Shown piece by piece: positions 22,816-48,337 of a DNA stretch of 64,000 nt (position 1 is the first letter of the stretch; each line of letters opens with the position of its first letter). Under the pieces are notes generated by a model that was given only the letters and a program-made list of their open reading frames with translations, made no database searches and was not told where the DNA came from. Both the position numbers and the translations under genes were made by a program. The DNA lies in contig CP000066.1 in the NCBI GenBank assembly GCA_000002445.1, positions 448,001 through 512,000 of the forward strand. The letters run 5' to 3'. This DNA comes from Trypanosoma brucei. Taxonomy: Eukaryota.

Positions 22816-23796
22816 TCACTGGGTGTGCTGTGGCTCCTGCGACCGCTGCAAAGCCATTGAACGACGAACATGAAAAGTATGCTCACCGCGACCCTGCTGC
22901 CGCACCTCAAAGTATTGCGGATACCTCTCAAAGAATTGCATTGCCTTCAACCCGGGTTTTCCCATGCATCGGACGCGCACCTCCTCCGGAATGCCCAGTT
23001 CTGTAAAGGGAGACCATTCGTTAGGGATGTACTGAAGCACGGTGTTTAAACGTTGCTGCTTTTCTGAAAGTGGGTCATGTTGAAGAACGCGAGCATTGAT
23101 GTCATCCGGTTTCAAGGGACTCGACGCTGGCGCCTCAGGAGATGAGGGAGAAGACGACGACCTTACACCTGCAGCATAAGTAGAAGCGGAAATATGAGAA
23201 GTGTTTTCGAGCACCATCGGCCTCGCATTCGCCGGTACCAAATGCGGTGGTGAGCAAAAGATCGTACGGTTGCGCAACGCCCCCTGCTGATACAAAGCAA
23301 AGTTTCGTGGATACTGCAACAGAAGCTGCTCAAGTGGAACCTTGTTCTTCACCAGCGTTTTCTTGCTGTCAGCCGACAGTGCACGGAAGAGTGATCCGAT
23401 TGGTACGGGCCTGCTCAACAGTGCTTGAACCTCCTCCAGCAGGTTATTTACAGCCTCCTCCTGTTCCGTCGACTTTGCAGAAGCGGAGTTGGTAGGTTTG
23501 GTTCCAACTGAGGCGCCACCTTCAAAACTATGTTGCTCGCAGTGCTGATGTAAATCTGTATTAGTGCCCCCACCGACTGCAGAATGTAAGCGGCATCGTG
23601 TGGAAAATGTGGGGGTAACAAACGCCGCAGAAGTGATCATATCTCCTCCAATAATGCGGTGGGAGCCCATAATAAAACTGTAGTTACGCGTACTCCCAGT
23701 CCCGCAACTGCCATGTGATGCGAGACGAGTGTTTAAATGGCCTGGGAGAAAAGCCAGTTGTCTCCAATACAGTGAACCATGCGTGGTTGTTCGCAT
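22816..23796 (-). CDS. Hypothetical protein, 326 aa, Ser/Ala/Pro-rich
   Basis: Uninterrupted ORF with a verified ATG ('cat' at 23794-23796). It is on the same strand as its neighbours. I recognise no domain. Confidence 0.55.
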   Translation of the reverse strand: MRTTTHGSLYWRQLAFLPGHLNTRLASHGSCGTGSTRNYSFIMGSHRIIGGDMITSAAFVTPTFSTRCRLHSAVGGGTNTDLHQHCEQHSFEGGASVGTKPTNSASAKSTEQEEAVNNLLEEVQALLSRPVPIGSLFRALSADSKKTLVKNKVPLEQLLLQYPRNFALYQQGALRNRTIFCSPPHLVPANARPMVLENTSHISASTYAAGVRSSSSPSSPEAPASSPLKPDDINARVLQHDPLSEKQQRLNTVLQYIPNEWSPFTELGIPEEVRVRCMGKPGLKAMQFFERYPQYFEVRQQGRGEHTFHVRRSMALQRSQEPQHTQ

Positions 23797-24806: not shown

Positions 24807-25676
24807 CTAGCGGCGGTATTGCCCCCCAAATCCACGCTCCTCACCTCGCCCCATTCGACCGCTGTCCCTTCCCCCGTTACCTCTGCCACCTCTGAAGCCA
24901 CCACCACCACCACCGCCTCTATCATTCCTTCCCCTGTCCTCTCCTCCTCCTCCTCCTCCTCTACCTCTTCCTCCTCCCCCTCTTCCTCCTCCAGCGCCAT
25001 TCCGGCCCCTAAAACCGCCACCGCCACCATTCATGGGCCTCCCTCCCCTGCCGCGGCCTCCACGGCGTGTCAACCCAAGCATTTCTTGCATGGTTTCCCG
25101 CTGTCGTTCCCGTGCAGTGAGCTTCTGATACGCTAGTGGTGTAGCGGCAACGTATAGCACACCATCGGAAGGATTAGCCTTCACAACAAAAAGTTGTTTG
25201 CGTTGCTCCAAAAAGCTTTTGAGGCCGCTATGCTTCTCTGAAACGGCTTCTTGCACATCGGGTGAAAGCTGGGCGTTAAGGCTCTTTATCGTTATGGCTC
25301 CGTTCTGCGGAATGTGCTTGATAACGCTCATCAACACCTTGGTATCATCTCGCATAACTACTCGGGTACCCTCACTGAGCTCACCATCAAATGTTTGATT
25401 GATCAGTGCACGTCGCTGAGGCGCGTCTGTGGGAGGCTTCCCACTGCCACCACCGCCACCGCCGCCAAACCCGCGACCTCCGCTCCTGCCGTCTCCACGT
25501 CTGAAATTACCCCCTTCACGGCCGAAGGATCCTTGGGTTCGCATGGAAAGAAAGATTGGAAACGTAGCACCGACACACGGGGGACAAAAGTGTCTGTTGC
25601 TGACGAAACTCGGCCTAAAAGCAGCCAACCGCCGAATCAGCACGGGCAAATCAACGATACCAAATGCGGCAGACAT
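24807..25676 (-). CDS. Arg/Gly-rich (RGG-box) RNA-binding protein with a mitochondrial-presequence-like N-terminus; candidate MRB1/RESC-complex RGG protein
   Basis: 289 aa with a verified ATG. The N-terminus is MSAAFGIVDLPVLIRRLAAFRPSF. A folded middle region sits between two long RGG/GGRG tracts: RSGGRGFGGGGGGGSG, and a C-terminal run RGGRGRGGRPMNGGGGGFRGRNGAGGGRGGGGRGRGGGGGG... Its position between PDHB and RMI1 fits my memory of MRB1820, which is recollection only. Confidence 0.75.
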   Translation of the reverse strand: MSAAFGIVDLPVLIRRLAAFRPSFVSNRHFCPPCVGATFPIFLSMRTQGSFGREGGNFRRGDGRSGGRGFGGGGGGGSGKPPTDAPQRRALINQTFDGELSEGTRVVMRDDTKVLMSVIKHIPQNGAITIKSLNAQLSPDVQEAVSEKHSGLKSFLEQRKQLFVVKANPSDGVLYVAATPLAYQKLTARERQRETMQEMLGLTRRGGRGRGGRPMNGGGGGFRGRNGAGGGRGGGGRGRGGGGGGEDRGRNDRGGGGGGGFRGGRGNGGRDSGRMGRGEERGFGGQYRR

Positions 25677-30181: not shown

Positions 30182-31078
30182 CTACAGAAGGAATGGTAAC
30201 ATGGCCTTCTTGTTGCGCACCGATGGATCTGTTTTAATATAGTTCTTGTGTTTCTTCACAGCCCACTCCGCCATTTGTACGAGTCCTGCAAATGTAAAAC
30301 CCCAGGAGGTTAGCATACTCGTACCAAGAGAAAAGGCCACCCAAGAAAGGATCTCAAATAAGTAATTGGGACAAGACACCAGTGAAAAGAGAATTCCTTT
30401 GGGTACCGGCCGCGTCGCGTCACCATCTCCCTTTCGCATCCCACTCAACTGCACATGCACGGCAAAGTTAAGGAGCTCGAATATTACCATCGCCACCGCT
30501 GAGGCATTCACAAGTGTGGGGGACGCGGGTTCCGTGTAGTACGGGCTGCATAGAGCATAGCCAATGCCAAGTGCAAAGGTCCAGTAATACACGCAATTTT
30601 TGATGATGTTGCGCCGCGGCATAGTGGGGTGAGAGAACTTGTGCACAAAGAACGTCTCCAGCTCCCGCTTAATGAAGTGGGCACAGAAGAGAGCAATGTA
30701 AAGCTTCTGCGTGTAGCAGTACTCCTTAACAATGCTGCTGCCGTAAATGAAGGAGGGGCGTGCCGCATACGCCAACATGATTGCCAAAGGACCGGCGTAT
30801 TCCACAACGAATACGGTACGGTATCCCACCTGTGGGCCGAGATCCTTGTAAACAACTTCAGATCCATCCTTTACACCCTGTTCCGTGAGAGCCCGCTTTG
30901 CGTCGAGGGTTATGTACGCCGATTTATCATTCTTGTCGCCACCACTACGAAGGATTTTGAAAGACTTGCGATGAATATCCACTCTTGGTTTGTACACCTT
31001 TTTGAGGTCAGTGAGACCGGCATTTGAGGGTAGTTCAACCACCTCTGAGGATGAGCCTGATATCACGGTAACCTTCAT
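30182..31078 (-). CDS. TECR: Trans-2-enoyl-CoA reductase / 3-oxo-5-alpha-steroid 4-dehydrogenase family (TECR/Tsc13-like), with an N-terminal ubiquitin-like domain
   Basis: The track ORF starts at TTG (31246). The first ATG is at 31076-31078 (MKVTVISGSSSEVVELP, a ubiquitin-like beta-grasp). The C-terminal polytopic steroid 5-alpha-reductase domain reads FVHKFSHPTMP...NCVYYWTFALGIGYAL...SCPNYLFEILSWVAFSL. Confidence 0.85.
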   Translation of the reverse strand: MKVTVISGSSSEVVELPSNAGLTDLKKVYKPRVDIHRKSFKILRSGGDKNDKSAYITLDAKRALTEQGVKDGSEVVYKDLGPQVGYRTVFVVEYAGPLAIMLAYAARPSFIYGSSIVKEYCYTQKLYIALFCAHFIKRELETFFVHKFSHPTMPRRNIIKNCVYYWTFALGIGYALCSPYYTEPASPTLVNASAVAMVIFELLNFAVHVQLSGMRKGDGDATRPVPKGILFSLVSCPNYLFEILSWVAFSLGTSMLTSWGFTFAGLVQMAEWAVKKHKNYIKTDPSVRNKKAMLPFLL

Positions 31079-31138
31079 GATTTGGACTTTTGGCAGTTTC
31101 TTTTTTTTGTTGTTGCTTTTGTTGGCGTGAGATAAATT

Positions 31139-31228
31139 CTGTACAAGATGAACGTAGATGAGTAAACACAAATATATATATGCATATATGCATAGACATA
31201 GCCGTACACGTAAAAAAAAAAACGATAA
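31139..31228 (-). promoter_or_regulatory. Example polypyrimidine tract plus first downstream AG (candidate spliced-leader acceptor) upstream of the TECR gene
   Basis: On the minus strand the sequence reads ...tttatcgtttttttttttac... and shows no AG until ...tcttgtacAG (plus-strand 'ct' at 31139-31140). This lies about 60 nt upstream of the ATG at 31078. Comparable T/C tracts precede every gene in the window. Confidence 0.35.
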
Positions 31229-32260
31229 ATTAGAATTCAGTAGCAAACGTTAGGGAGATGCGAATTTAATTAAAATATAATGAAAAGCAGGCTAAACAAC
31301 AACACGAATGAAAAGGTGTTACGAGAAGAGAAGCAACTGAAATGCGCGACTCTTCCATTCACCTTCTCATTCAGGAAGTTAAATAATGTTTTTTTTTCCT
31401 CTTTCTTTCTTTTTTTTGAAGAAGGAAAGAAACGTGCAATATAAATAATCGACCCAACAAATTAAGCAGGTTTTCTAAACTTCTGAAAGGGGTAACGTAA
31501 CGCAACATGAAAAGGTCAGCTTGATGAAATGGGATTGGGGCAAGCTACAAAATATACAAAAAAAAAAAGAAGGGGGAGGAAAAAAAAAACGCCTCAGTAA
31601 ATCAATAAAATTGAAAGAAGTACTGAGGGGCCACCCATTTGGGAGGAAATTCGTATCGACTACCATTGAAGAAAAGATAAGGGAGAAGTATTAAGACAGA
31701 TGAGATAGGGCGAAGTTAATTAATGAGGGGGGAAGAATATTTTAAGTATAAAACAAATTGAAGATATATACATATGTATTTCTGTATACAAAAAAATGTA
31801 GTAACAATCAACAAAAAAACAAAAAGAAAGAAACAAATGAGAAATAAATGAGAAATAAAGTACCAAAGAAACCAAGCGTTCCAGCTGGAACGCCCACCAG
31901 TAACACTGCGCCATAATTAAAATCACTACAAACAACCGTATTCCCATACATGTGAATATATACATCCCTTAGTAAACAATGCGGAGGCGAATCGAAGCTG
32001 CAAAAGGAGCAATCCCAAGCTCACGATGTCCCATGACACCTTTAATCCGCGCTCCTTTACACCTTATTATTATTATTGTTATTTTACGCTTCCCCTTCCT
32101 TTCCCACGTCCCTCCAACGCACACACACACAACCATCCAATCTTAATATCGTTTACATAACAAAAAAGTGTACTCAAAGAAAGGAAAGGAAAACCAGGCA
32201 CCACTTTTTCCCTCTCCCACTTCCCAATTAGTCACTAAGATGTTCACCAAACACACATCA

Positions 32261-35929: not shown

Positions 35930-38245
35930 TTATTTTTTACCCCCGTGCCCTTTTGTGGAACTGTCGCTGCCGGAGTGGTTATTGGCATTAACTGATGAAC
36001 CGCTACCACCAGGCGCACTGCTCCCAGACGAGGCGGAGGAATTTGAAGCTGTTGAGTGCGCACCGGCGTGCTGCGAAGATTGTCCACCGTTTCTTCCACT
36101 GGACGAGCGCTTCTTCAACATGCGCTCCGCCTCACGATCCGCCTTTTGTTTATTCCACGCTTCCTTTTTCTCTCGTAACATTTGCCGCACCCCTCGCCCC
36201 TCCAGCACGCGAGGTGTTGGTGGTGATGGAAAGATAACACTCCGACAGTTGCGGGTGCCACAACTGCATGCAAATGGCGGCATACGTTCGTCACATAACG
36301 TGGCATAATCCACGGTTAACTCCTCACCACTATTAATTGTCCGCTTAGAGACAAGCGTCAGCGTCCGGCCCTGCAAGAAATGCATATTGGGTTCACAAGA
36401 GTGACGAATTGCAACTGCCTGATGAAGGCGATCACCACGTAAAATCACACACCCCACCACTGGATCCTCTTCCCCAAGTTTATATACAGCCTGAGCAATA
36501 ACGGGAACAGTGTGGGCCGCATCACTGAAGAGCGCCTTGCCGGGCCGTACGGTTCGGCTCGCTTTACTCGAAAAATTTCCACGAGAATCGTGACTGATGA
36601 AGTACCATGGCCGCCTTGCCTTCTGCTCACGGACTGCGCGGTTCACTGCATTGTCCACAAAGCGGTCGTGATCCCATGATTTATCGCCCACCACCATCAA
36701 GTCCGCGAAGTCACCGCCATCCTTCTCGCTGTACCACATCCCACAGTTTGGGTTGATTTCCAAAAAGTATACATCACCTTTGGGGTCTATACGAAAGTCA
36801 ACACGGCCATATCCGACCCCGTTCATAATGTGTTGGAAAGCATTCCGGGCCATGTCAATAATCCGTGGGTAGGCCGGGTCATTATGAGGAAGAAAACTGC
36901 ATGCCTCATCGTTGCATTCCATGGACCACTTCTTGTCAAAATAGGCAAAGTCATCTTCATTTTGCAAAAAGTTAAACATTAAAGGCCTGAACACCTTGAC
37001 GCCATGCGGACTCCCGCTGTCGGCACATGCGAGAACGGTGCCCTCACGTCCTCGAATAAACTCCTCCACCAGAGCGTGATTGAACTCTTTCAGAAATGTT
37101 CCAACCTTCACTTTCAACTCGTCCAGAGTGTCACAACGGTTATCCTTGTTAATGCCAACAGAAGCGTAACCGGAAAGATGTTTCACGATGACAGGGAACC
37201 GCAGATGACGACATTTCTTCGCCAAACCTTCCGTTTTATCCAAAAGCACAAAGTTAGGTGTATTCACACCGGCCCCGGCAACAAGCACTTTCATATCAAT
37301 CTTGCTGGGTTCAAAACTGCGCGAGTCTGTGCCCGTAAATGCTGCGTTGTGCTCCTCCAGTGCCTCTAATACGTCGATACCAGCACGCTTCTCATCTTTA
37401 CCACCGTCACAAAGGTTAAAGAAAACGTCGAAGTTGTTTGAGGTTACCAATTCTCGCACCTGACGATAGGCATCATCTTTACGCACAGCAACTTCCGTGA
37501 AGGAGTACCTGTTCTTGTCCTTCCGCACCCTGTGAGCGGGGCTGCAGTGGTAATTGTCCATTTCCGCAGTGACAGAATTGGTCCCTTCGTAGCTGCTGTT
37601 GAGGACACATACGCGCAATTGCTTCTTTACGCTCGCCCTTCTCCTGCCTAGAGTTTGAGATACCACCATCCCAGTCGCCGATTTTGTGCAGTGGGAACCA
37701 TTAGCGGATGAAGAGCCCGTTGACATTGCTGTTGCTGTGTTCGTGGTCGATGCACCGGATCTATTCACCACTGACTTGGAAGAGGAAGCTTTTACTTTCT
37801 TCAGCCCAATCACATCTTCTTTTCCTTTTCTTGCTGACCTTCCCCGATTCGATCCCTGCCCTATTTCCACTGCTGTAGTCATCCCTGAGCTTTTACCTGA
37901 CGCACCACCGCCGTTACTCGTACCTGATGCACTCAACAGGGCTGCACTCTTCGTGCCGGGGTTAATGCCATTACCTCCAGGATGAGCGGATGTACCGACG
38001 GCGGCGGGAGGCACGGCGCCTCCAACTGTCAAACAACTTGAAGTACCACCACTTTTACTGCTCACAGAAGAGGCAGCACCACGGGATGGGAGAATAATAG
38101 TTGTGTTGGATGACTTCCATCGCAGGGTGTGAACAGTCACGCAACTCCACACAGCCACTGTTGGGGTTTTGGGTATTAATACATCTGCAAGGGGACATCG
38201 TAAGACTGAAGCCACACCAAAACGTCGAATTGCTATTCTGTACAT
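35930..38245 (-). CDS. Fusion protein: D-Ala-D-Ala-ligase-like ATP-grasp domain followed by a SET-domain methyltransferase with post-SET Cys cluster, and a Ser/Gly-rich C-tail
   Basis: 771 aa with a verified ATG. The ATP-grasp part reads FPVIVKHLSGYASVGINKDNRCDTLDELKVKV...LVEEFIRGREGTVLAC...GYGRVDFRIDPKGDVYFLEINPNCGM. The SET part reads GCVILRGDRLHQAVAIRHSCEPNMHF...INSGEELTVDYATLCDERMPPFACSCGTRNCRSVI. Confidence 0.85.
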   Translation of the reverse strand: MYRIAIRRFGVASVLRCPLADVLIPKTPTVAVWSCVTVHTLRWKSSNTTIILPSRGAASSVSSKSGGTSSCLTVGGAVPPAAVGTSAHPGGNGINPGTKSAALLSASGTSNGGGASGKSSGMTTAVEIGQGSNRGRSARKGKEDVIGLKKVKASSSKSVVNRSGASTTNTATAMSTGSSSANGSHCTKSATGMVVSQTLGRRRASVKKQLRVCVLNSSYEGTNSVTAEMDNYHCSPAHRVRKDKNRYSFTEVAVRKDDAYRQVRELVTSNNFDVFFNLCDGGKDEKRAGIDVLEALEEHNAAFTGTDSRSFEPSKIDMKVLVAGAGVNTPNFVLLDKTEGLAKKCRHLRFPVIVKHLSGYASVGINKDNRCDTLDELKVKVGTFLKEFNHALVEEFIRGREGTVLACADSGSPHGVKVFRPLMFNFLQNEDDFAYFDKKWSMECNDEACSFLPHNDPAYPRIIDMARNAFQHIMNGVGYGRVDFRIDPKGDVYFLEINPNCGMWYSEKDGGDFADLMVVGDKSWDHDRFVDNAVNRAVREQKARRPWYFISHDSRGNFSSKASRTVRPGKALFSDAAHTVPVIAQAVYKLGEEDPVVGCVILRGDRLHQAVAIRHSCEPNMHFLQGRTLTLVSKRTINSGEELTVDYATLCDERMPPFACSCGTRNCRSVIFPSPPTPRVLEGRGVRQMLREKKEAWNKQKADREAERMLKKRSSSGRNGGQSSQHAGAHSTASNSSASSGSSAPGGSGSSVNANNHSGSDSSTKGHGGKK

Positions 38246-39183
38246 CCCTTTTCTTATACTCCTTCACGAAAGGGAATAAGCCGTTACGAAAGACAGGGAG
38301 GAGAGCGGAGGAAGTAAAGTGCACACAAAGGAAGGAGGAAAAAAAACAGTGCCAGTTTCATTATCAGGGAAGAACAACCTCCACTCAACAAATACACGCC
38401 AATGTTGCGAACACTTCACACACCAGCATCAACCACACTAAAACACGCGTCCAAACGCATGGCACGGCGACCTATATATATATATATATATAATAGATGT
38501 AGACGTCACTGGGATGGGAAAGGTAGAGAGTTGAAGTAGGGAACCGCATGGCACTTATTGTGTTAGACTCTAATAATAAAGTATTTTACGTGTCCCTTTA
38601 CCTTCATCCTCTTATTGACAGTGAGACCAAGTATTCATCGAATTCTCAGAAATCACGGCAAGAATACACATGCACAAATATGTGTATGCGAATAACAAAG
38701 ACACTTCTTTCCACTTTACCGTAAATAGGTTTCGCTCGCCCATGACACTGGAGTGAAAAAAAAAAGGTGACTTGAGAGAGAGGTTAAAGAAAAAAAAACG
38801 TATAAAAAATATATTAATAACAAAAATAATAACTAAACAAATAAGCATATAAACCAAGAAGAAAAGAAACAACAGCTGCCCTCGATGCTCTCGGCCAAAT
38901 GAAGGATCATGTCTTCCACCGAATAATCTCTTTTTCCTCACACTTCCCTTCACACATACACACACCCACACGCATACAAGAGCAGATTCTGTAGACACCC
39001 AACAAGCATATTGCTGCAACAAAACAAACATGAGTACAGAAGAAAAACGGTAGTAACAAAAAAAACAATGGAGTATGGAACAGGAAAATTAAAGGAAGGC
39101 TGTAAACGCATTTGCTTAGGAATAATAACGATGACCATCAGTACAATGTCACCTCTTAAGAGGTGTAGAAATGAATAGAGAAA

Positions 39184-40053
39184 TCACAAGTCACCGAAGA
39201 AACTCGCGTCCTCTAAAAGTTTTCCAACGCGCACGTGGCCCATGAGAGGCGGTCCATCAGGGTCTTCCAAAGAAGCTCGATCTCCGCGCATCCATGTGAA
39301 TTTGAGCACCCTTGAAAAGTTTCTCCCCTCCCAGTTCTTGTTATCGAAGTTTTGTTCAGCGATGTAAACAAGTGAGGGCTGTCGACGCTCCTTCTTCAGT
39401 TCGCGAAGTGCCGCCTCTCCACCAGCAGCAGATACGTCATCTTCCACCTTCACAACCACGGCAACGTGACCGCGTGGAAAGTATGCCTTATAGTCCGAGT
39501 CCCATACCACAACATCGCCCACGAGCGGCGTGTGCCGCTTGCGCCTCTTCGTTGTCGTGACTTCCACCTTATTTTCGAAGTTAATCCGCTCGTATAGACG
39601 GTGCATCCCGCTTGAACCAAAAAACTTGAGGTTCTCCCAGTACAAATCGTGTCTGCTTCCACCGAAATAGACGAAAATTCCTCGGGTGTGTAAAAGGTAG
39701 CGAGCAACAAACTCATCCGCGGTCCAACACAACCCAGTTGGTGCTCGCTTCCACTCGGACCCATACGGCATTTTCTTCATCACTTCATGTGGATAACCAA
39801 TTGTAGTGTAGGCGTATGTCTCTGACAGCCAGTGGCGGTGGCAGTTGCTCATAGAAGGGACGTCTGAACTATAACCTACAACAGAGTCCATGGGAGCGTT
39901 GCAATGCTCAAGTGGGTTGAAATCCATATGCATCCCATGTCTCTTTGATTTCTGCGTGGATCCCCCACCGAGGAGAACGTAGACGAATAGAAAAAGCAGG
40001 AGAGTAGCCGGCACAGCGAGCTGAAACTTCTGTTTTCGGTTTAGAGACACCAT
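39184..40053 (-). CDS. Stand-alone CHAP-domain amidase, related to the glutathionylspermidine/trypanothione amidase domain, with an N-terminal signal-anchor
   Basis: The track start is TTG, and the first ATG is at 40051-40053 (MVSLNRKQKFQLAVPATLLLFLFVYVLLGG, hydrophobic). The catalytic region reads GLCWTADEFVARYLLHTRG...GDVVVWDSDYKAYFPRGHVAVVVKVEDD...LVYIAEQNFDNKNWEG. It parallels trypanothione synthetase-amidase YQCVEFARRWLLERKG...[28 protein letters not shown]. Confidence 0.75.
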   Translation of the reverse strand: MVSLNRKQKFQLAVPATLLLFLFVYVLLGGGSTQKSKRHGMHMDFNPLEHCNAPMDSVVGYSSDVPSMSNCHRHWLSETYAYTTIGYPHEVMKKMPYGSEWKRAPTGLCWTADEFVARYLLHTRGIFVYFGGSRHDLYWENLKFFGSSGMHRLYERINFENKVEVTTTKRRKRHTPLVGDVVVWDSDYKAYFPRGHVAVVVKVEDDVSAAGGEAALRELKKERRQPSLVYIAEQNFDNKNWEGRNFSRVLKFTWMRGDRASLEDPDGPPLMGHVRVGKLLEDASFFGDL

Positions 40054-40403
40054 TTGTGGCGTGATTTGTTGATTCGCGTCCTTTACAAAATAATAATAAT
40101 AACAATACCAATGCCAATGCCAATAAGGTTTTATAGCCCTCCCGTGAAAGGATGGAAGAAAGATAGAAAGAAGAGCATTGACAGAAACGTGCCAACAGGA
40201 AAGAACCCGATCATCGGACACACAGAATGTACCGCTGAAGCGATATAGTAGGTAAAAAGTGCGAGACACAAATGGCAAAAAAAATTTTCAAAGTTCGTAT
40301 GATGGGAAAAGGTGTAAAACATGTGAAATCCTCCCCACATTCATCTGATTATTGCGCCGTACATCAGACCAGTAGACTGCCGCCGATTTTCTCCACGCAC
40401 CAA

Positions 40404-42431
40404 TCAGTAGACACAAACACAGTTACATCCCCTGGGGCAACGGTGCACACTCTGGTCATTCCACCACGCCATAATATGCGACATGTGCCCCCCATGACCG
40501 CAGTAAATACAACGCAAAATGAGGCAGCCATTCCTCTTGCTTGAAGGAGGCGGTGTGGCGCCTCCTTCAGCTCCACCACTCCCATGTCCTTGCCCGCCCG
40601 GTAATAGCGAGAGACCACAAATAGCACATGTGTCTGTTGGTAGTAAAGCTGGGCTTAGGTCCTTGTCCTTCGCTCCAACAGTGCCAGGGCCTCCGCTACC
40701 GCTATCACCATACGCATTAATTGGTGAACTCCTGCTGGCCATGTGTAGTTGTTGATTTAGGGTAGCATTACAATAGGCGGTCTCAATAGCGCTCATGACA
40801 AGTTCTACCTCACGGAACTTTACAGGCTGATCCATGATAAAGAATACATGAGAAACAACAGACACACAGCGATAGCACTCTACCGGATGAATCAGATGCT
40901 TTGCAATGTCTGGAAACGCCGGTTCCTCACTTAATATGGAGGGAAGTACAACACAACAGACGACTACACCCGCCCAAAAGGGTTGCCGCTGTGCCTGCAT
41001 CGTCTCCACGGATTGAGCAAGAGCTGGTATGAGGAGTTTTCGAGCACAGAGCAGAGGTGTCTGCACTACCAGCGCTCCCTTCACGATATGGGACAACGTG
41101 CGAAACGTCAGCGATACCCCGCGAAGCGCTTTGGCGTTACGTGTTATATGAGCGTTCTTGCATAAGGCGGAATGGGGTTTATCGTCATACAGGCACACAT
41201 CATTCATCGTATATTTTTTCGTATGCAGTATATTTTCCGGTGCTAATAGTGAAGGAAGTAGCATCCTCCTTTCTTTACTTACCCCCTTTGGCACCACAGA
41301 TAGGTCAAGTGCAGAATTAGTCAAAAAAATCCGCCCCTGGACCGATTGGCTATCGGGTCCGTGCGAAAAAACACCAGCCACACCTGTCAAACCAATCGTG
41401 TTTCCATCGATACCGTCCCCACATTCTGTATTACCACACCCGCGGTTGAAAAGCGGTGAAGACGACGAAAAGCCACCTGAAGACGTCGCATCGGGATGTG
41501 GTCTTCCCTTTGCAAGAGATGCAGATGCAGAGCGATCATCAATTCCTTTTGCTTCCGATCGGTCTGAGCGTCCCCATGAAAGGATTCCGCCGTTCGGCAT
41601 GAATGCGGCGGCAAACTGACGCTTCGGCCTCAGAACCATATTACTCCCCATGAAGTCTTCAAAATGCCCAACAAAATCATCCCGCAGTGACCAACCATTA
41701 CTTTCCTCGTATAATGCCGTCGTGCTTCCCGAGTGCACGCAGTCACGCTCAAGCACTAAGCAACTCTCGTCCAGTTCCAAGGCCCCCCACCAAGTGCAGA
41801 GAAAAGAGAAACCAGACAGAAACAATGACCCAGTCGCCTGCTCAACACCACGTCCCACTGCCCCAGCGTCCATGGATACCTCTGTCGACGAACCCGAGGC
41901 ATCCACAGGCCTCAGTGATGTGAGTCGCGAGCAGCCATACCGCAATTTGCCGTAGTAGTCCGCAGCGTTCTCAACAGTATCATTGCAACCCCCATTGTGT
42001 GACAGTTTTGGCGCAGTGAGTTTCGATATAGCTTCCTCTAAGACAAACGACTGCAACCCACAGCATCTGTTGGCACCACCCCCGCTATCATGCTCGCTGC
42101 CTTGTACGCAACCGTCCTTGGCGTAGCGCCAGCTGCAGGGAGCCGCCGGATACGAAGGTGGGAAAACAGCGACCCACTCCGCTACAACCATGAACCCTGA
42201 AACAGAATTCTTGGGTTCTACAGCCCCTTGGAATTCGCGCTGAAGCCGCACAACCACCATACAAGTCCCGTCTACTTCTGAAACCGGGTCGCACACTATT
42301 ACGGTAGGCGCTCCTCTCCCCGACGGCAGTTTCGCTGGCGTGGCCTGAATACCTACGCACGGTGCGAAGTAAACGCTAGCACGTTTTCTTGCCTCCTCAA
42401 CCTCCGGCGATACAACAACTAAAGGTCCCAT
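40404..42431 (-). CDS. Protein with a GATOR2/SEA-complex-type C-terminal RING-like zinc finger (WDR59/WDR24/MIOS-like)
   Basis: 675 aa with a verified ATG. The C-terminus reads CAICGLSLLPGG...CLILRCIYCGHGGHMSHIMAWWNDQSVHRCPRGCNCVCVY. This matches the signature CxxC...CxxCGHGGHxxHxxxW...CPxGCxC of Sea2/3/4 and WDR24/WDR59/MIOS. Upstream Trp/Gly-containing segments could be degenerate beta-propeller blades. Confidence 0.65.
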   Translation of the reverse strand: MGPLVVVSPEVEEARKRASVYFAPCVGIQATPAKLPSGRGAPTVIVCDPVSEVDGTCMVVVRLQREFQGAVEPKNSVSGFMVVAEWVAVFPPSYPAAPCSWRYAKDGCVQGSEHDSGGGANRCCGLQSFVLEEAISKLTAPKLSHNGGCNDTVENAADYYGKLRYGCSRLTSLRPVDASGSSTEVSMDAGAVGRGVEQATGSLFLSGFSFLCTWWGALELDESCLVLERDCVHSGSTTALYEESNGWSLRDDFVGHFEDFMGSNMVLRPKRQFAAAFMPNGGILSWGRSDRSEAKGIDDRSASASLAKGRPHPDATSSGGFSSSSPLFNRGCGNTECGDGIDGNTIGLTGVAGVFSHGPDSQSVQGRIFLTNSALDLSVVPKGVSKERRMLLPSLLAPENILHTKKYTMNDVCLYDDKPHSALCKNAHITRNAKALRGVSLTFRTLSHIVKGALVVQTPLLCARKLLIPALAQSVETMQAQRQPFWAGVVVCCVVLPSILSEEPAFPDIAKHLIHPVECYRCVSVVSHVFFIMDQPVKFREVELVMSAIETAYCNATLNQQLHMASRSSPINAYGDSGSGGPGTVGAKDKDLSPALLPTDTCAICGLSLLPGGQGHGSGGAEGGATPPPSSKRNGCLILRCIYCGHGGHMSHIMAWWNDQSVHRCPRGCNCVCVY

Positions 42432-42952: not shown

Positions 42953-43807
42953 CTAGAATTCTTCCATTTGTGGCTCAGGACCATATGACAGTTTCTCTCC
43001 AAACACAGATTTTAGGCGCCACTCGTCTCGCACCTGGTCATCAACCTTTGGTTCCACGAACTTCCGGAAAAACCAGGCACGGCGAACGGACACTTGCTTC
43101 CAGTAGTTGTGCAGTCGTGCTTGCGCTTTGCAGTAAAACTTCACAACTGACTCCTCCAACACCTGAGCCATCGCGGGACCGGCGGAAGAATAATACATCT
43201 CTTCTGCCTCCAGAGCCGTAACAGGTTGCCCCTCCCGCTTGCGACGCGTGACCTCCCGCTCAACACCGGAGTACAACTCCTCCCGGAACTCGGCGGGAGG
43301 CTTAAATTCCAAATCCGTCCAATGACCCCCACTAAAGCCTTTAACCTGAGGGTAGCGGACAAGATTCCTGGTAAGTTGGGGTGTGGCATCCTTACTCACT
43401 TCGTAGAACTTAAGATTCGGATAGCGGTCAGCGCTCTGGTGGCAAAGAAATTCAAACGTTTTGTCGAGTGCATTACACGCTGTGCAGTTCTCCTGATGAT
43501 ACCGCACAACCATAACGTCATCCGAGTGAGAAAAGTAGTGCAACTTCTCCCGCATCTCCTCTACCGAATGAATTGGCTTCACACACCTGGTTGGAAATTT
43601 CATCCAAATTGGATTCACTGGCAACTCGTTGTTTGCGCCCAAACCGCTACGGATACCTGCGCTGTTCATCATCAGTGCCTTCATTTTGTGCGAAGCCGAT
43701 TGGTAAAGCTCGAGCTTCTCCCGCCGTCGCTTGATCCCAGCAACGACTTCAGACCGGCCGCCCGGTACCTCCGGCTCGCTCCATTCTTCTTTTCGGGTTT
43801 CGGCCAT
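42953..43807 (-). CDS. Thioredoxin-fold protein with atypical CTAC active-site motif
   Basis: 284 aa with a verified ATG. The motif is VVRYHQENCTACNALDKTFEFLCHQSADRYPNLKFYEV, laid out like thioredoxin WCGPCK...F.KVD. N- and C-terminal extensions are present. Confidence 0.6.
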   Translation of the reverse strand: MAETRKEEWSEPEVPGGRSEVVAGIKRRREKLELYQSASHKMKALMMNSAGIRSGLGANNELPVNPIWMKFPTRCVKPIHSVEEMREKLHYFSHSDDVMVVRYHQENCTACNALDKTFEFLCHQSADRYPNLKFYEVSKDATPQLTRNLVRYPQVKGFSGGHWTDLEFKPPAEFREELYSGVEREVTRRKREGQPVTALEAEEMYYSSAGPAMAQVLEESVVKFYCKAQARLHNYWKQVSVRRAWFFRKFVEPKVDDQVRDEWRLKSVFGEKLSYGPEPQMEEF

Positions 43808-45733: not shown

Positions 45734-48337
45734 TTATGCTTCATCTTCTATCTCATCTTCACCTGTGCCAGACGCACGGGCAACATCATTCCCACTAAGT
45801 TCTTCGCTCCCAATAGAGGAAGATGATGAAGAAGCGTTCTTTCGACCTTTGGATACGCTAGAGCTTGACCGAGACGTCCTTTTACTGCTCGATTCTTTGG
45901 ACGATGCACCATCCGCTGAGTCCTTCGCCGCGTCGGCACCGGACGCCTCATCCACAGCCTCGCTCTTTACCGCATCAGAATCTAGCTCATCTACATCCTG
46001 ATCGTTAACATGTTCGTCCTCTACAACCTGTTGCACAGCCTCACCCTTTTCAGATGATGGCGATCTCTCCAGTTCGTCGCCGTACTCGAACTTATCCCCC
46101 TCCAGTTTAGCGGATGATTCGGATTTCTTCGATGATGAGCGGGACTGCTCCGACTCGGTATCTTTCTTTTCAGATGTCTGGGACTTGTCAAGCTCCTCAG
46201 TGTATTCATCCTTCTGTTCATCATCCTCAGGCTTCTTCGATGATGAGCGGGACCGCTCCGACTCGGTATCTTTCTGATCCTCAGCCTCGGTATCTTTCTT
46301 TTCAGATGTCTGGGACTTGTCAAGCTCCTCAGTGTATTCATCCTTCTGTTCATCATCCTCAGGCTTCTTCGATGATGAGCGGGACCGCTCCGACTCGGTA
46401 TCTTTCTGATCCTCAGCCTCGGTATCTTTCTTTTCAGATGTCTGGGACTTGTCAAGCTCCTCAGTGTATTCATCCTTCTGTTCATCATCCTCAGGCTTCT
46501 TCGATGATGAGCGGGACTGCTCCGACTCGGTATCTTTCTTTTCAGATGTCTGGGACTTGTCAAGCTCCTCAGTGTATTCATCCTTCTGTTCATCATCCTC
46601 AGGCTTCTTCGATGATGAGCGGGACCGCTCCGACTCGGTATCTTTCTGATCCTCAGCCTCGGTATCTTTCTTTTCAGATGTCTGGGACTTGTCAAGCTCC
46701 TCAGTGTATTCATCCTTCTGTTCATCATCCTCAGGCTTCTTCGATGATGAGCGGGACCGCTCCGACTCGGTATCTTTCTGATCCTCAGCCTCGGTATCTT
46801 TCTTTTCAGATGTCTGGGACTTGTCAAGCTCCTCAGTGTATTCATCCTTCTGTTCATCATCCTCAGGCTTCTTCGATGATGAGCGGGACCGCTCCGACTC
46901 GGTATCTTTCTGATCCTCAGTGTCAGGATCCTTCTTTCCGGACTCGGAGGCTTCAAATTCGTCACCATAATCATTCTTGGTTGTATCAGCAGTTGGTTCA
47001 TCATCCGTCTTGTCTGCATCATCCTTCGTCAGTTCCTCAGGCTTCTTCGATGATGAGCGGGACCGCTCCGACTCGGTATCTTTCTGATCCTCAGTGTCAG
47101 GATCCTTCTTTCCGGACTCGGAGGCTTCAAATTCGTCACCATAATCATTCTTGGTTGTATCAGCAGTCGGTTCATCATCCGTCTTCTCTCGTCCTTCCCT
47201 GCCGGATCTCTCAGACTTCCTTGACGATGGTCGAGAACGGTCAGATTGAGTGTCCTTCCCATCTTCAGCATCGGTGGTGTCCTGTTGCATCGCTTTTTGA
47301 CTGGCGCTTGCAGATGCAGAGGACGGGCGAGCAGCAGATGCAGGACGGCTATTGCCACCATCCTTCAAAATTTCCTTGCTCGTCGACTGCTCTGTCGAGG
47401 CTGGTTGCGGAGATGCTGTAGAAGGTCTGCTTTCCCTCTTAGCTTCGCTGGGTTGCGCCACACTTGATGTAGAACCCTTCCCAGTTGCAGAGTCTTCCGC
47501 GACTGATGATGAAATTGGGGCCTCGTCTTCGGTCACAGCACCGTGCTTACTGCTTTCAGTTAACCCTCCACCGGACTTCCGGCCGCCAACGGGAGAAGCG
47601 GCTCCTTTGCCCTTCTGTGGTGTGGCGGGTCGGGAAGAGTCCGAATTTAGAGTTTCTCTAATGGTCTTGAGTAATATATTCTTGGGAGGGGACGAAGTTT
47701 TGCCCTTTCCCTGACTGCTGCAGGCACCCGGTCGGCCACCTCGTTGGCCCACTGTATCAGGACGCTTTTGTTTGGGTGGCTTAGGAACTGTCGCCACGGC
47801 GCGTTTCTTGGATCCAGTAGCTCTACTCGACACAGTACGTTGACGCTTCTTCGCAACTTCTTTTCTACCCGATGTAGTCTCTTTCGGGCTGGTCAACTCC
47901 TCGGCCTCAACACGCCTCTGCGTAGCGAATCCCGTCCGGCATGCGAGTTCCTCCAACTCCCTCTGGCGCCGTTCCTCAAATCGCCGGCGAGCCACTTCAC
48001 GCCGATGTTGCTCCAACCGCTTCTGCCGCCTCATCTCTTCCCGGCGCTCGGCCGTTTCACGGATCAACATCTCCCTTCGGGCCCAGTAAGGTGCAAGGTA
48101 TGGATCTTCCAAATCGTTATACGGAGGAAGACTTTGGTCTTGTAGTGGCCCAAGTGTGAATTCTGTTTCTAGGAAGCGCTGAGCGGACTGTGGGCGTAGA
48201 TTACTGTTTACTGTAGATCTTGGTGTAACAACACACAAAGCATTGGTAGCAGCCGGACCATGTGACGCGTAGACGCCCACTCGAGCTGCCTCACCGCCGC
48301 GAGATGAACTCTCCAGTGGGGGGAGCGACTTCGACAT
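45734..48337 (-). CDS. Highly acidic Ser/Lys/Glu/Asp-rich tandem-repeat protein (867 aa) with an Arg-rich coiled-coil N-terminus
   Basis: Verified ATG (atgtcgaagtcgctcccc). The N-terminus reads RREMLIRETAERREEMRRQKRLEQHRREVARRRFEERRQRELEEL. It is followed by at least 8 near-identical 44- or 36-aa units SE(R/Q)SRSSSKKPEDDEQKDEYTEELDKSQTSEKKDTE(AEDQKDTE). Two longer 62-aa units precede them. Confidence 0.85.
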   Translation of the reverse strand: MSKSLPPLESSSRGGEAARVGVYASHGPAATNALCVVTPRSTVNSNLRPQSAQRFLETEFTLGPLQDQSLPPYNDLEDPYLAPYWARREMLIRETAERREEMRRQKRLEQHRREVARRRFEERRQRELEELACRTGFATQRRVEAEELTSPKETTSGRKEVAKKRQRTVSSRATGSKKRAVATVPKPPKQKRPDTVGQRGGRPGACSSQGKGKTSSPPKNILLKTIRETLNSDSSRPATPQKGKGAASPVGGRKSGGGLTESSKHGAVTEDEAPISSSVAEDSATGKGSTSSVAQPSEAKRESRPSTASPQPASTEQSTSKEILKDGGNSRPASAARPSSASASASQKAMQQDTTDAEDGKDTQSDRSRPSSRKSERSGREGREKTDDEPTADTTKNDYGDEFEASESGKKDPDTEDQKDTESERSRSSSKKPEELTKDDADKTDDEPTADTTKNDYGDEFEASESGKKDPDTEDQKDTESERSRSSSKKPEDDEQKDEYTEELDKSQTSEKKDTEAEDQKDTESERSRSSSKKPEDDEQKDEYTEELDKSQTSEKKDTEAEDQKDTESERSRSSSKKPEDDEQKDEYTEELDKSQTSEKKDTESEQSRSSSKKPEDDEQKDEYTEELDKSQTSEKKDTEAEDQKDTESERSRSSSKKPEDDEQKDEYTEELDKSQTSEKKDTEAEDQKDTESERSRSSSKKPEDDEQKDEYTEELDKSQTSEKKDTESEQSRSSSKKSESSAKLEGDKFEYGDELERSPSSEKGEAVQQVVEDEHVNDQDVDELDSDAVKSEAVDEASGADAAKDSADGASSKESSSKRTSRSSSSVSKGRKNASSSSSSIGSEELSGNDVARASGTGEDEIEDEA
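46100..47130. repeat. Coding tandem-repeat array: 8 copies of a 132-nt unit, or 108-nt where a 24-nt segment is missing, inside the acidic-repeat gene
   Basis: The marker 'gatgatgagcggga' recurs at about 46131, 46239, 46371, 46503, 46611, 46743, 46875 and 47049. The spacings are 108, 132, 132, 108, 132, 132 and 174 nt. The copies are nearly identical apart from C/T differences (gggaccgc versus gggactgc). Confidence 0.9.

Follow-up and report, generated by a model that had tools for sequence, protein, structure and literature searches.

What does the minus-strand gene at positions 39184-40053 of our window encode, the window being the whole analysed stretch of 64,000 nucleotides from Trypanosoma brucei (contig CP000066.1, positions 448,001 to 512,000)? 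A preliminary description, made from the DNA letters, had proposed a membrane-anchored, free-standing amidase resembling the amidase half of trypanothione synthetase (TryS). The open reading frame (ORF) on which it rested is real: it is uninterrupted over 289 codons from an ATG at 40053 to a TGA stop, starts at the first in-frame ATG with no other in-frame ATG 5′ of it, and translates to a protein identical to T. brucei TREU927 XP_843781.1 (UniProt Q57ZC4), encoded on the 1.65-Mb chromosome 3. The T. b. gambiense counterpart is 99% identical. Our reading, to which we assign a probability of about 60%, is that the gene encodes a catalytically inactive paralogue of the glutathionylspermidine (Gsp)/trypanothione amidases, a pseudo-amidase of the secretory pathway that most likely resides in the endoplasmic reticulum (ER).

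The databases name this protein “hypothetical protein, conserved”, “Peptidase C51 domain-containing protein” or “CHAP domain containing protein, putative”. The gene is probably Tb927.3.1870, because two of its neighbours match genes of that numbered series, namely the RGG/MRB1 subunit gene at 24807-25676 (Tb927.3.1820) and the steroid 5-alpha-reductase gene at 30182-31246 (Tb927.3.1840), and because a 2008 paper places Tb927.3.1870, a putative membrane protein, next to Tb927.3.1860 (PMC2504296). A regulated mRNA was detected by a genomic clone covering Tb927.3.1860 and Tb927.3.1870 (PMC2504296). For Tb927.3.1870 an orthogroup table lists one T. congolense orthologue, one T. vivax orthologue and three T. 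cruzi copies, in agreement with our own sequence searches.

The 289-aa protein is a stand-alone homologue specifically of the Gsp/trypanothione amidase subfamily. Its match to the Pfam family PF05257 (CHAP) scores 31.6 bits (E = 2.5e-7), where 26 would suffice. This match spans residues 169-206 only, equivalent to profile positions 40-72 of 81, and thus covers the histidine half of the domain and not the cysteine half; the active T. brucei paralogue XP_951594.1 (P0112) matches the entire profile with 52 bits. Searches of the PDB with the single sequence (phmmer) and with a profile of four African-trypanosome orthologues returned nothing at E ≤ 10. Matches required a broader family profile, built from a search of a representative library, with which hmmsearch recovered E. 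coli Gsp synthetase/amidase (GspS; E = 3e-21) and TryS (E = 3e-18). The homology extends over the full domain, including the N-terminal PFGxxLG lobe, and is accompanied by a match in fold: in a Foldseek search with the AlphaFold2 model (predicted local distance difference test, pLDDT, 88) the top 20 hits were all GspS or TryS amidase domains, these scored far above any other structure, and the best of them was 3A2Y (E = 2e-9). The ATP-grasp synthetase domain (PF03738) is absent, and the chain ends after the amidase-like domain. Fold, CHAP match and family profile therefore agree with the proposal of a free-standing homologue of the TryS amidase half, and the segments GDVVVW, GHVAVVV and YIAEQNFDN, quoted in its favor, do align with the E. 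coli GspS and L. major TryS amidases. That they “align closely”, as had been stated, is too strong, since the single-sequence and four-sequence searches of the PDB were empty; judged by sequence, the resemblance to TryS is real yet remote, at about 20% identity.

The amidase activity itself depends on a residue that the protein lacks. Cys59 of L. major TryS was identified as the nucleophile by mutagenesis (PMC2427367), Cys59 of the E. coli enzyme is named as its active-site nucleophile (PMC6272389), and amidases of the CHAP/papain type rely on a Cys-His pair, their reaction passing through an acyl-thioester intermediate (PMC2427367). The corresponding residue of the T. brucei protein is Ala112, a result returned by three independent alignments. 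A MAFFT alignment with Cys-bearing paralogues places “GLCWTADEFVARY” opposite “GMKWQCVEYARRY”; the alignment of the family profile to the PDB by hmmsearch puts Ala112 in the column of E. coli Cys59; and hhalign, run with a profile of 11 orthologues only, free of bridging paralogues, against the E. coli amidase, pairs GLCWTADEF with GHKWQCVEF (97.7% probability, E = 2.2e-12). The L. major segment “FGFKYQCVEFARRW” aligns likewise with the region of Ala112, and the core helix of the AlphaFold2 model (residues 112-124) begins exactly at this residue. The catalytic cysteine segment in the preliminary description was assigned to the wrong residue: Cys109, which lies within “CWTADEFVARYLL” three residues before the nucleophile position and outside the nucleophile helix, aligns with E. 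coli Lys56 and is unconserved: T. vivax has Gly at this position, T. cruzi has Arg, and further residues occur among the remaining orthologues. Careful alignment of the triad thus found His196 and Glu233 in place and the cysteine missing. Ala112 was invariant among the Trypanosoma orthologues in this triad check; separately, one T. cruzi copy (P0011) scored Ser. Because the nucleophile position is an alanine, the canonical thiol-amidase reaction is very probably impossible for this protein.

This loss is shared by a whole clade. Among 211 collected homologues aligned to the family hidden Markov model, 187 carry the nucleophile cysteine, and in these the motif around it is nearly fixed (W 97%, Q 97%, C 100%, V 98%, E 100%, A 86%, R 99%, R 99%). 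The T. brucei protein belongs to a group of 12 sequences that is monophyletic in a neighbor-joining tree and comprises members from T. brucei, T. congolense, T. vivax, T. cruzi, Angomonas, Strigomonas and Phytomonas, together with a T. rangeli fragment. A word-indexed protein search with the profile of orthologues alone returned just five proteins. When 11 clade sequences were scored by column, the nucleophile position was Ala in nine, Ser in one (P0012) and Cys in one (Strigomonas); with the Ser of the second T. cruzi copy, P0011, serine occurs in two members. Unlike the 187 homologues, the clade also lacks the Gln, Val, Ala and first Arg of the motif, and several positions after the helix are lost as well, such as an Ala that is 99% conserved elsewhere. 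Outside the clade, just three stray sequences lack the cysteine. The ORF is intact in all trypanosomatid lineages sampled, and its gene order is kept. P0012, with Ser at the nucleophile site, lies on a 7.4-kb contig of a distant trypanosomatid between an ATP-grasp/SET protein (70% identical to that of T. brucei) and a zinc-ribbon protein; its positional orthology is confirmed because both flanking genes are orthologues of the T. brucei neighbors. Since the clade is monophyletic, spans several species and keeps its gene order, the sequences mark the cysteine loss as an old, retained state and not as a sequencing error or an oddity of one strain.

T. cruzi carries several copies of the gene. P0004 and P0011 lie on the same contig (1,768,708 bp), and the orthogroup table lists three TcCLB.506543 genes. 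Besides having Ser at the nucleophile position, P0011 has lost AEQN and is scrambled in its C-terminal half, although GGDL is preserved at the very end; this copy may carry a frameshift or be in decay.

The other half of the active site has been kept. G195 and H196 show 100% conservation within the clade, as they do among the 187 Cys-bearing homologues, and the elements GH-A-V, AEQN, W241 and R248 remain at 100% in the clade, where 30 columns, H196 and AEQN among them, are invariant. Glu233 corresponds to E. coli Glu147 (counted from Cys59 along the aligned sequence) and L. major Asp146, and Asn235 to the oxyanion-hole residue Asn148 of L. major, the roles of the L. major residues being taken from PMC2427367; His196, Glu233 and Asn235 are all present and invariant in the clade. 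This half of the active site thus appears to be under strict selection, with the nucleophile side free to vary. After the His strand and before the AEQN strand the clade has a well-conserved insertion of 23 residues, where GspS, TryS and most active paralogues have either nothing or an unrelated sequence. The insertion is modeled as two helices (residues 207-210 and 213-221; pLDDT >90), opposite which the E. coli and L. major sequences are gapped.

Three features bear on where the protein goes. The N-terminal hydrophobic segment noted in the preliminary description holds up: it is preceded by a basic N-terminus (R6, K7, K9) and followed by GGGS, it is modeled as a helix (residues 6-27) ahead of a disordered linker (33-43), and the orthologues have hydrophobic stretches of about 16-23 residues at the same place. 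It is predicted to be a signal anchor or an uncleaved-type signal peptide; its length favors an anchor, and cleavage after GGG/S is possible. The second feature is a pair of cysteines, Cys51 and Cys71, bounding a segment of the N-terminal lobe common to TryS and GspS (“PFGxxLGYA”). Both are invariant in the clade. Of the 209 His-bearing homologues, 116 have the pair, and the majority of these 116 also have a hydrophobic segment at the N-terminus; the 26 long bifunctional GspS-type enzymes all lack the pair. Because the pair tracks hydrophobic N-termini in this way, we infer that it forms a lumenal disulfide that would arise only outside the cytosol. The third is the C-terminus, which reads [G/D/E/A]-D-L in 10 of 13 clade members despite tails that vary in length and sequence; an ending in [DE]L is found in only 7 of the 196 other homologues. 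In T. brucei, BiP depends on the tetrapeptide MDDL for its retention and is secreted once this is removed (bioRxiv 10.64898/2026.04.03.716285). From these features ER residence of the 289-aa protein seems probable and, the C-terminal DL being conserved, a surface location less likely than ER retention. The earlier proposal of a secretory-pathway or surface amidase accordingly keeps its first element, a non-cytosolic location being likely, with the surface the weaker of its two options and, given Ala112, thiol-amidase activity unsupported. A conserved N-x-S sequon at N245 was considered as evidence of glycosylation and set aside, as it is present in cytosolic bifunctional enzymes too.

Table 1. 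Positions of the gene and of its notable features in the window
Feature	Window positions	Strand	Description
Coding sequence	39184..40053	-	289 codons plus TGA stop at 39184-39186
Polypyrimidine tract (CTCTTCTTTCTATCTTTCTTCCATCCTTTC)	40146..40175	-	About 95 nt 5′ of the ATG; found by sequence inspection
N-terminal hydrophobic segment, residues 10-28 (FQLAVPATLLLFLFVYVLL)	39970..40026	-	Kyte-Doolittle mean 2.3 over 19 residues
Segment bounded by Cys51 (39901-39903) and Cys71 (39841-39843)	39841..39903	-	PxxxxxGY and SNC motifs
Cys109	39727-39729	-	
Degenerate nucleophile helix WTADEFVAR, residues 110-118	39700..39726	-	Equivalent of WQCVE[YF]ARR
Ala112	39718-39720	-	Codon GCG
GHVAVVV strand, residues 195-201, with His196	39451..39471	-	His196 equivalent to E. 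coli His131 and L. major His130
Insertion, residues 204-226 (EDDVSAAGGEAALRELKKERRQP)	39376..39444	-	Between the His strand and the AEQN strand
AEQN, residues 232-235	39349..39360	-	Glu233, third triad residue; Asn235, oxyanion-hole residue
C-terminal FGDL	39187..39198	-	Candidate KDEL-type ER-retrieval signal (putative function)

Taken as an ER pseudo-amidase, the protein would work as follows. The hydrophobic N-terminus would direct it to the ER and probably act as a type II signal anchor that leaves the domain on the lumenal side. There, Cys51 and Cys71 may pair in the N-terminal lobe, and the C-terminal GDL may be read by the KDEL-receptor system, resulting in retention. Both the Gsp-amidase fold and one half of the active site (His196/Glu233/Asn235) are still present in the domain, and with the thiol nucleophile replaced by Ala112 and the flanking Gln, Val, Ala and Arg decayed, no acyl-thioester step would be expected. 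The lost nucleophile, in a fold that retains half of its active site, points to binding rather than hydrolysis. The ligand could be a glutathionyl- or gamma-glutamyl-amide-like compound, as in E. coli C59A with bound Gsp, or alternatively a protein partner, for example one of the membrane-anchored paralogues that have the cysteine and whose genes lie elsewhere in the genome. We regard such a binding or regulatory role as a plausible proposal that falls somewhat short of being probable. A more specific version, in which the protein is a prozyme-like switch in the ER lumen for the Cys-bearing C51 paralogues, or a receptor or buffer for glutathionyl-polyamine conjugates, is unlikely as matters stand; if true, it would place trypanothione-related thiol-polyamine chemistry inside the trypanosomatid secretory pathway.

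Several observations weigh against an inactive ER protein. His196, Glu233, Gln234 and Asn235 are 100% conserved in the clade, whereas classic dead enzymes often lose residues of this kind, so that some chemistry may persist. The nucleophile position is Cys in one orthologue (Strigomonas) and Ser in two, and T. brucei and T. congolense have a cysteine, C109, three residues upstream of it. As for the location, the orthologues of T. congolense, Angomonas and Strigomonas lack the DL ending. Among the BiP-TurboID and LOPIT (localization of organelle proteins by isotope tagging) supplementary rows listed, Tb927.3.1870 appears in the orthogroup table only and no localization is given for it, an absence that is uninformative.

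Two of the alternatives hold that the protein is still an enzyme. One is that it is an active membrane-anchored thiol amidase with Cys109 as a displaced nucleophile that works together with His196 and Glu233; its substrate, located outside the cytosol, would be trypanothione, glutathionylspermidine or a related amide. Cys109 does lie in the loop directly before the active-site helix, the His/Glu/Asn machinery is perfectly conserved, and the existence of Cys-bearing paralogues of the same topology makes it plausible that substrates are present in the secretory pathway. The lack of conservation of Cys109 and its alignment with Lys56 instead of Cys59 count against this, as does the concomitant loss of the Gln before the nucleophile and of the Val, Ala and Arg of the helix; in papain, moreover, the residue at i-3 (Cys22) points away from the active site. 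We therefore consider a displaced nucleophile quite unlikely, and we give as little credence to a non-thiol hydrolase or transferase, in which water activated by His196/Glu233, or the Ser of the Ser-bearing orthologues, would attack a new substrate. Strict conservation of H196, E233, Q234, N235, W241 and R248 in the clade would fit such an enzyme, and Ser at the nucleophile position of P0011 and of P0012, the latter an orthologue confirmed by gene order, would supply a nucleophile; most orthologues, however, including those of all African trypanosomes, have Ala and hence none. We know of no characterized CHAP or papain-like enzyme that works without its cysteine, and E. coli C59A, the non-reactive control in work with an activity probe, has been crystallized with Gsp bound.

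The remaining alternatives concern origin and fate. Descent from a bacterial peptidoglycan amidase or endopeptidase of the CHAP type by horizontal transfer, an option that the preliminary description had left standing, would agree with the Pfam family being CHAP, with the name “D-alanyl-glycyl endopeptidase-like” attached to some T. cruzi orthologues and to a T. brucei paralogue, and with the existence of bacterial stand-alone homologues that have signal peptides. The fold comparison effectively refutes it, GspS and TryS being far ahead in the fold scores, and we rejected this candidate as extremely unlikely. That the gene is instead a decaying, functionless duplicate on its way to becoming a pseudogene would explain the vanished catalytic motif, the fast evolution (30% identity to the orthologue at the same position, against 70% for the neighboring gene) and the loss of AEQN in the T. 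cruzi copy P0011. This too is very unlikely in the face of an intact ORF in all sampled lineages and a conserved clade-specific insertion and C-terminal DL; the monophyly of the clade, the kept gene order, the 30 invariant columns and the regulated mRNA argue that the gene is still functional. We thus prefer the inactive, probably ER-resident amidase homologue to all four alternatives. The label of C51 peptidase or amidase does not suit the protein: the catalytic cysteine that defines this class was looked for and is absent. It is a non-peptidase homologue with a Gsp-amidase fold.

The closest known system is the CHAP/MEROPS C51 amidase domain of L. major TryS (PDB 2VOB/2VPM) and E. coli GspS (2IO7, 3A2Y/3A2Z). 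Compared with these, the 289-aa protein lacks the ATP-grasp synthetase, has Ala112 in place of Cys59 and a decayed WQCVE[YF]ARR motif, and adds the hydrophobic N-terminus, Cys51/Cys71, the 23-residue insertion and the C-terminal GDL. It is in effect the natural equivalent of the engineered E. coli C59A mutant, whose complex with glutathionylspermidine (3A2Y) was the best Foldseek match. Within trypanosomatids it resembles the stand-alone C51 proteins with an intact cysteine (“D-alanyl-glycyl endopeptidase-like protein”, or DAL), such as L. donovani DAL2 and the T. brucei chromosome 2 protein XP_951594.1, which is 24% identical to it; shared features are the Gsp-amidase-like domain, the SNC/Cys pair and an N-terminal transmembrane segment. 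Unlike the 289-aa protein, these relatives retain WQCVEYARR, and a longer N-terminal extension, cytosolic, precedes their membrane segment; neither the insertion nor the C-terminal DL is present in them (XP_951594.1 ends in VRYE). They are themselves functionally uncharacterized. In a bar-seq screen of L. mexicana null mutants, C51 was among the peptidase families for which loss of fitness in mice was rarer (PMC7319358).

Two precedents exist for a catalytically dead member of such a family. In trypanosomatids, AdoMetDC, deoxyhypusine synthase and PRMT1 are activated by catalytically dead paralogues called prozymes. Like these prozymes, the 289-aa protein is a dead paralogue of a polyamine/thiol enzyme retained under selection alongside an active one in the same genome (XP_951594.1, with WQCVEYARR and the full CHAP match); unlike the prozymes, which are cytosolic, it probably belongs to the secretory pathway. 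M. tuberculosis RipD, a non-catalytic protein of the NlpC/P60 type, has a papain-like amidase fold, has lost its catalytic residues and is thought to bind. RipD is bacterial, binds peptidoglycan and belongs to another subfamily, whereas the 289-aa protein keeps His, Glu and Asn and has lost the Cys side only.

The mere presence of an amidase-only C51 protein in T. brucei is not new. Stand-alone C51 proteins have been listed for Leishmania and T. brucei since 2007 (PMC2244715) and 2012 (PMC3516576), and the databases already apply the label CHAP/Peptidase C51. The 2012 degradome survey counted five T. brucei C51 members, TryS included, and proposed the amidase-only ones as possible amidases and drug targets, with active-site residues said to align well (PMC3516576); if the 289-aa protein is among the five, that claim fails at the nucleophile. 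Known before, then, was an annotated, uncharacterized family member; new are the clade-wide loss of the nucleophile motif, the ER-retrieval-like C-terminus and the Cys pair specific to secretory members. Trypanothione metabolism is a parasite-specific drug-target area in which TryS is a chemically validated target, and with the nucleophile missing across nearly the whole clade, active-site-directed cysteine inhibitors would be pointless against this protein. The protein is a candidate addition to an unusually long list of trypanosomatid polyamine/thiol pseudoenzymes, and it raises the question of whether glutathionyl-polyamine conjugates or related amides are present and processed in the trypanosome secretory pathway.

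Every long ORF of the window is on the minus strand, the arrangement that a polycistronic unit should show, and the polypyrimidine tract upstream of the gene (Table 1) is likely the trans-splicing signal of its mRNA. Immediately downstream, at 35930-38245 (-), lies the gene for a 771-aa protein in which an ATP-grasp domain like that of D-Ala-D-Ala ligase (PF07478, 57 bits) is followed by a SET domain at the C-terminus, an unusual fusion; its 70% identical counterpart in a distant trypanosomatid also stands beside an amidase-like gene. Although the synthetase half of GspS is ATP-grasp-like, no functional link between the two genes can be drawn, because trypanosomatid gene order is broadly conserved. 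The upstream neighbor, at 40404-42431 (-), encodes 675 aa with a C-terminal Cys/His-rich zinc-ribbon and a weak match to PF17034; its last 43 residues are 53% identical to the gene at the same position on contig L001, the remainder being poorly conserved. Two genes upstream, at 42953-43807 (-), a 284-aa protein has a sub-threshold thioredoxin-fold match (17.9 bits against 23.5) around “CTAC”. The adjacent genes at 22816-23796 (-) and 24807-25676 (-) both encode Gly/Arg-rich (RGG) proteins with weak Egalitarian-type winged-helix matches, and look like a tandem pair of paralogues. Two ORFs were considered as possible paralogues of the amidase-like gene within the window, the RGG gene at 24807-25676, which has the same length, and the thioredoxin-like gene at 42953-43807; both proved unrelated.

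Two further stretches of the window have an unusual composition. Downstream of the amidase-like gene, the intergenic or 3′ untranslated region at 38300-39180 is A/T-rich and of low complexity, with CA-rich runs such as “cacacatacacacacccacacgcatacaa” and spurious ORFs on both strands. At 46125-47189 there is a near-perfect tandem repeat array (98-100%) with nested periods of 108, 132, 240 and 372 bp; it lies inside an 867-aa ORF (45734-48337, -) that has no Pfam match, and it coincides with a strong dip in AT skew, to -0.32 at 46-48 kb, as well as with overlapping ORFs on both strands that are spurious.

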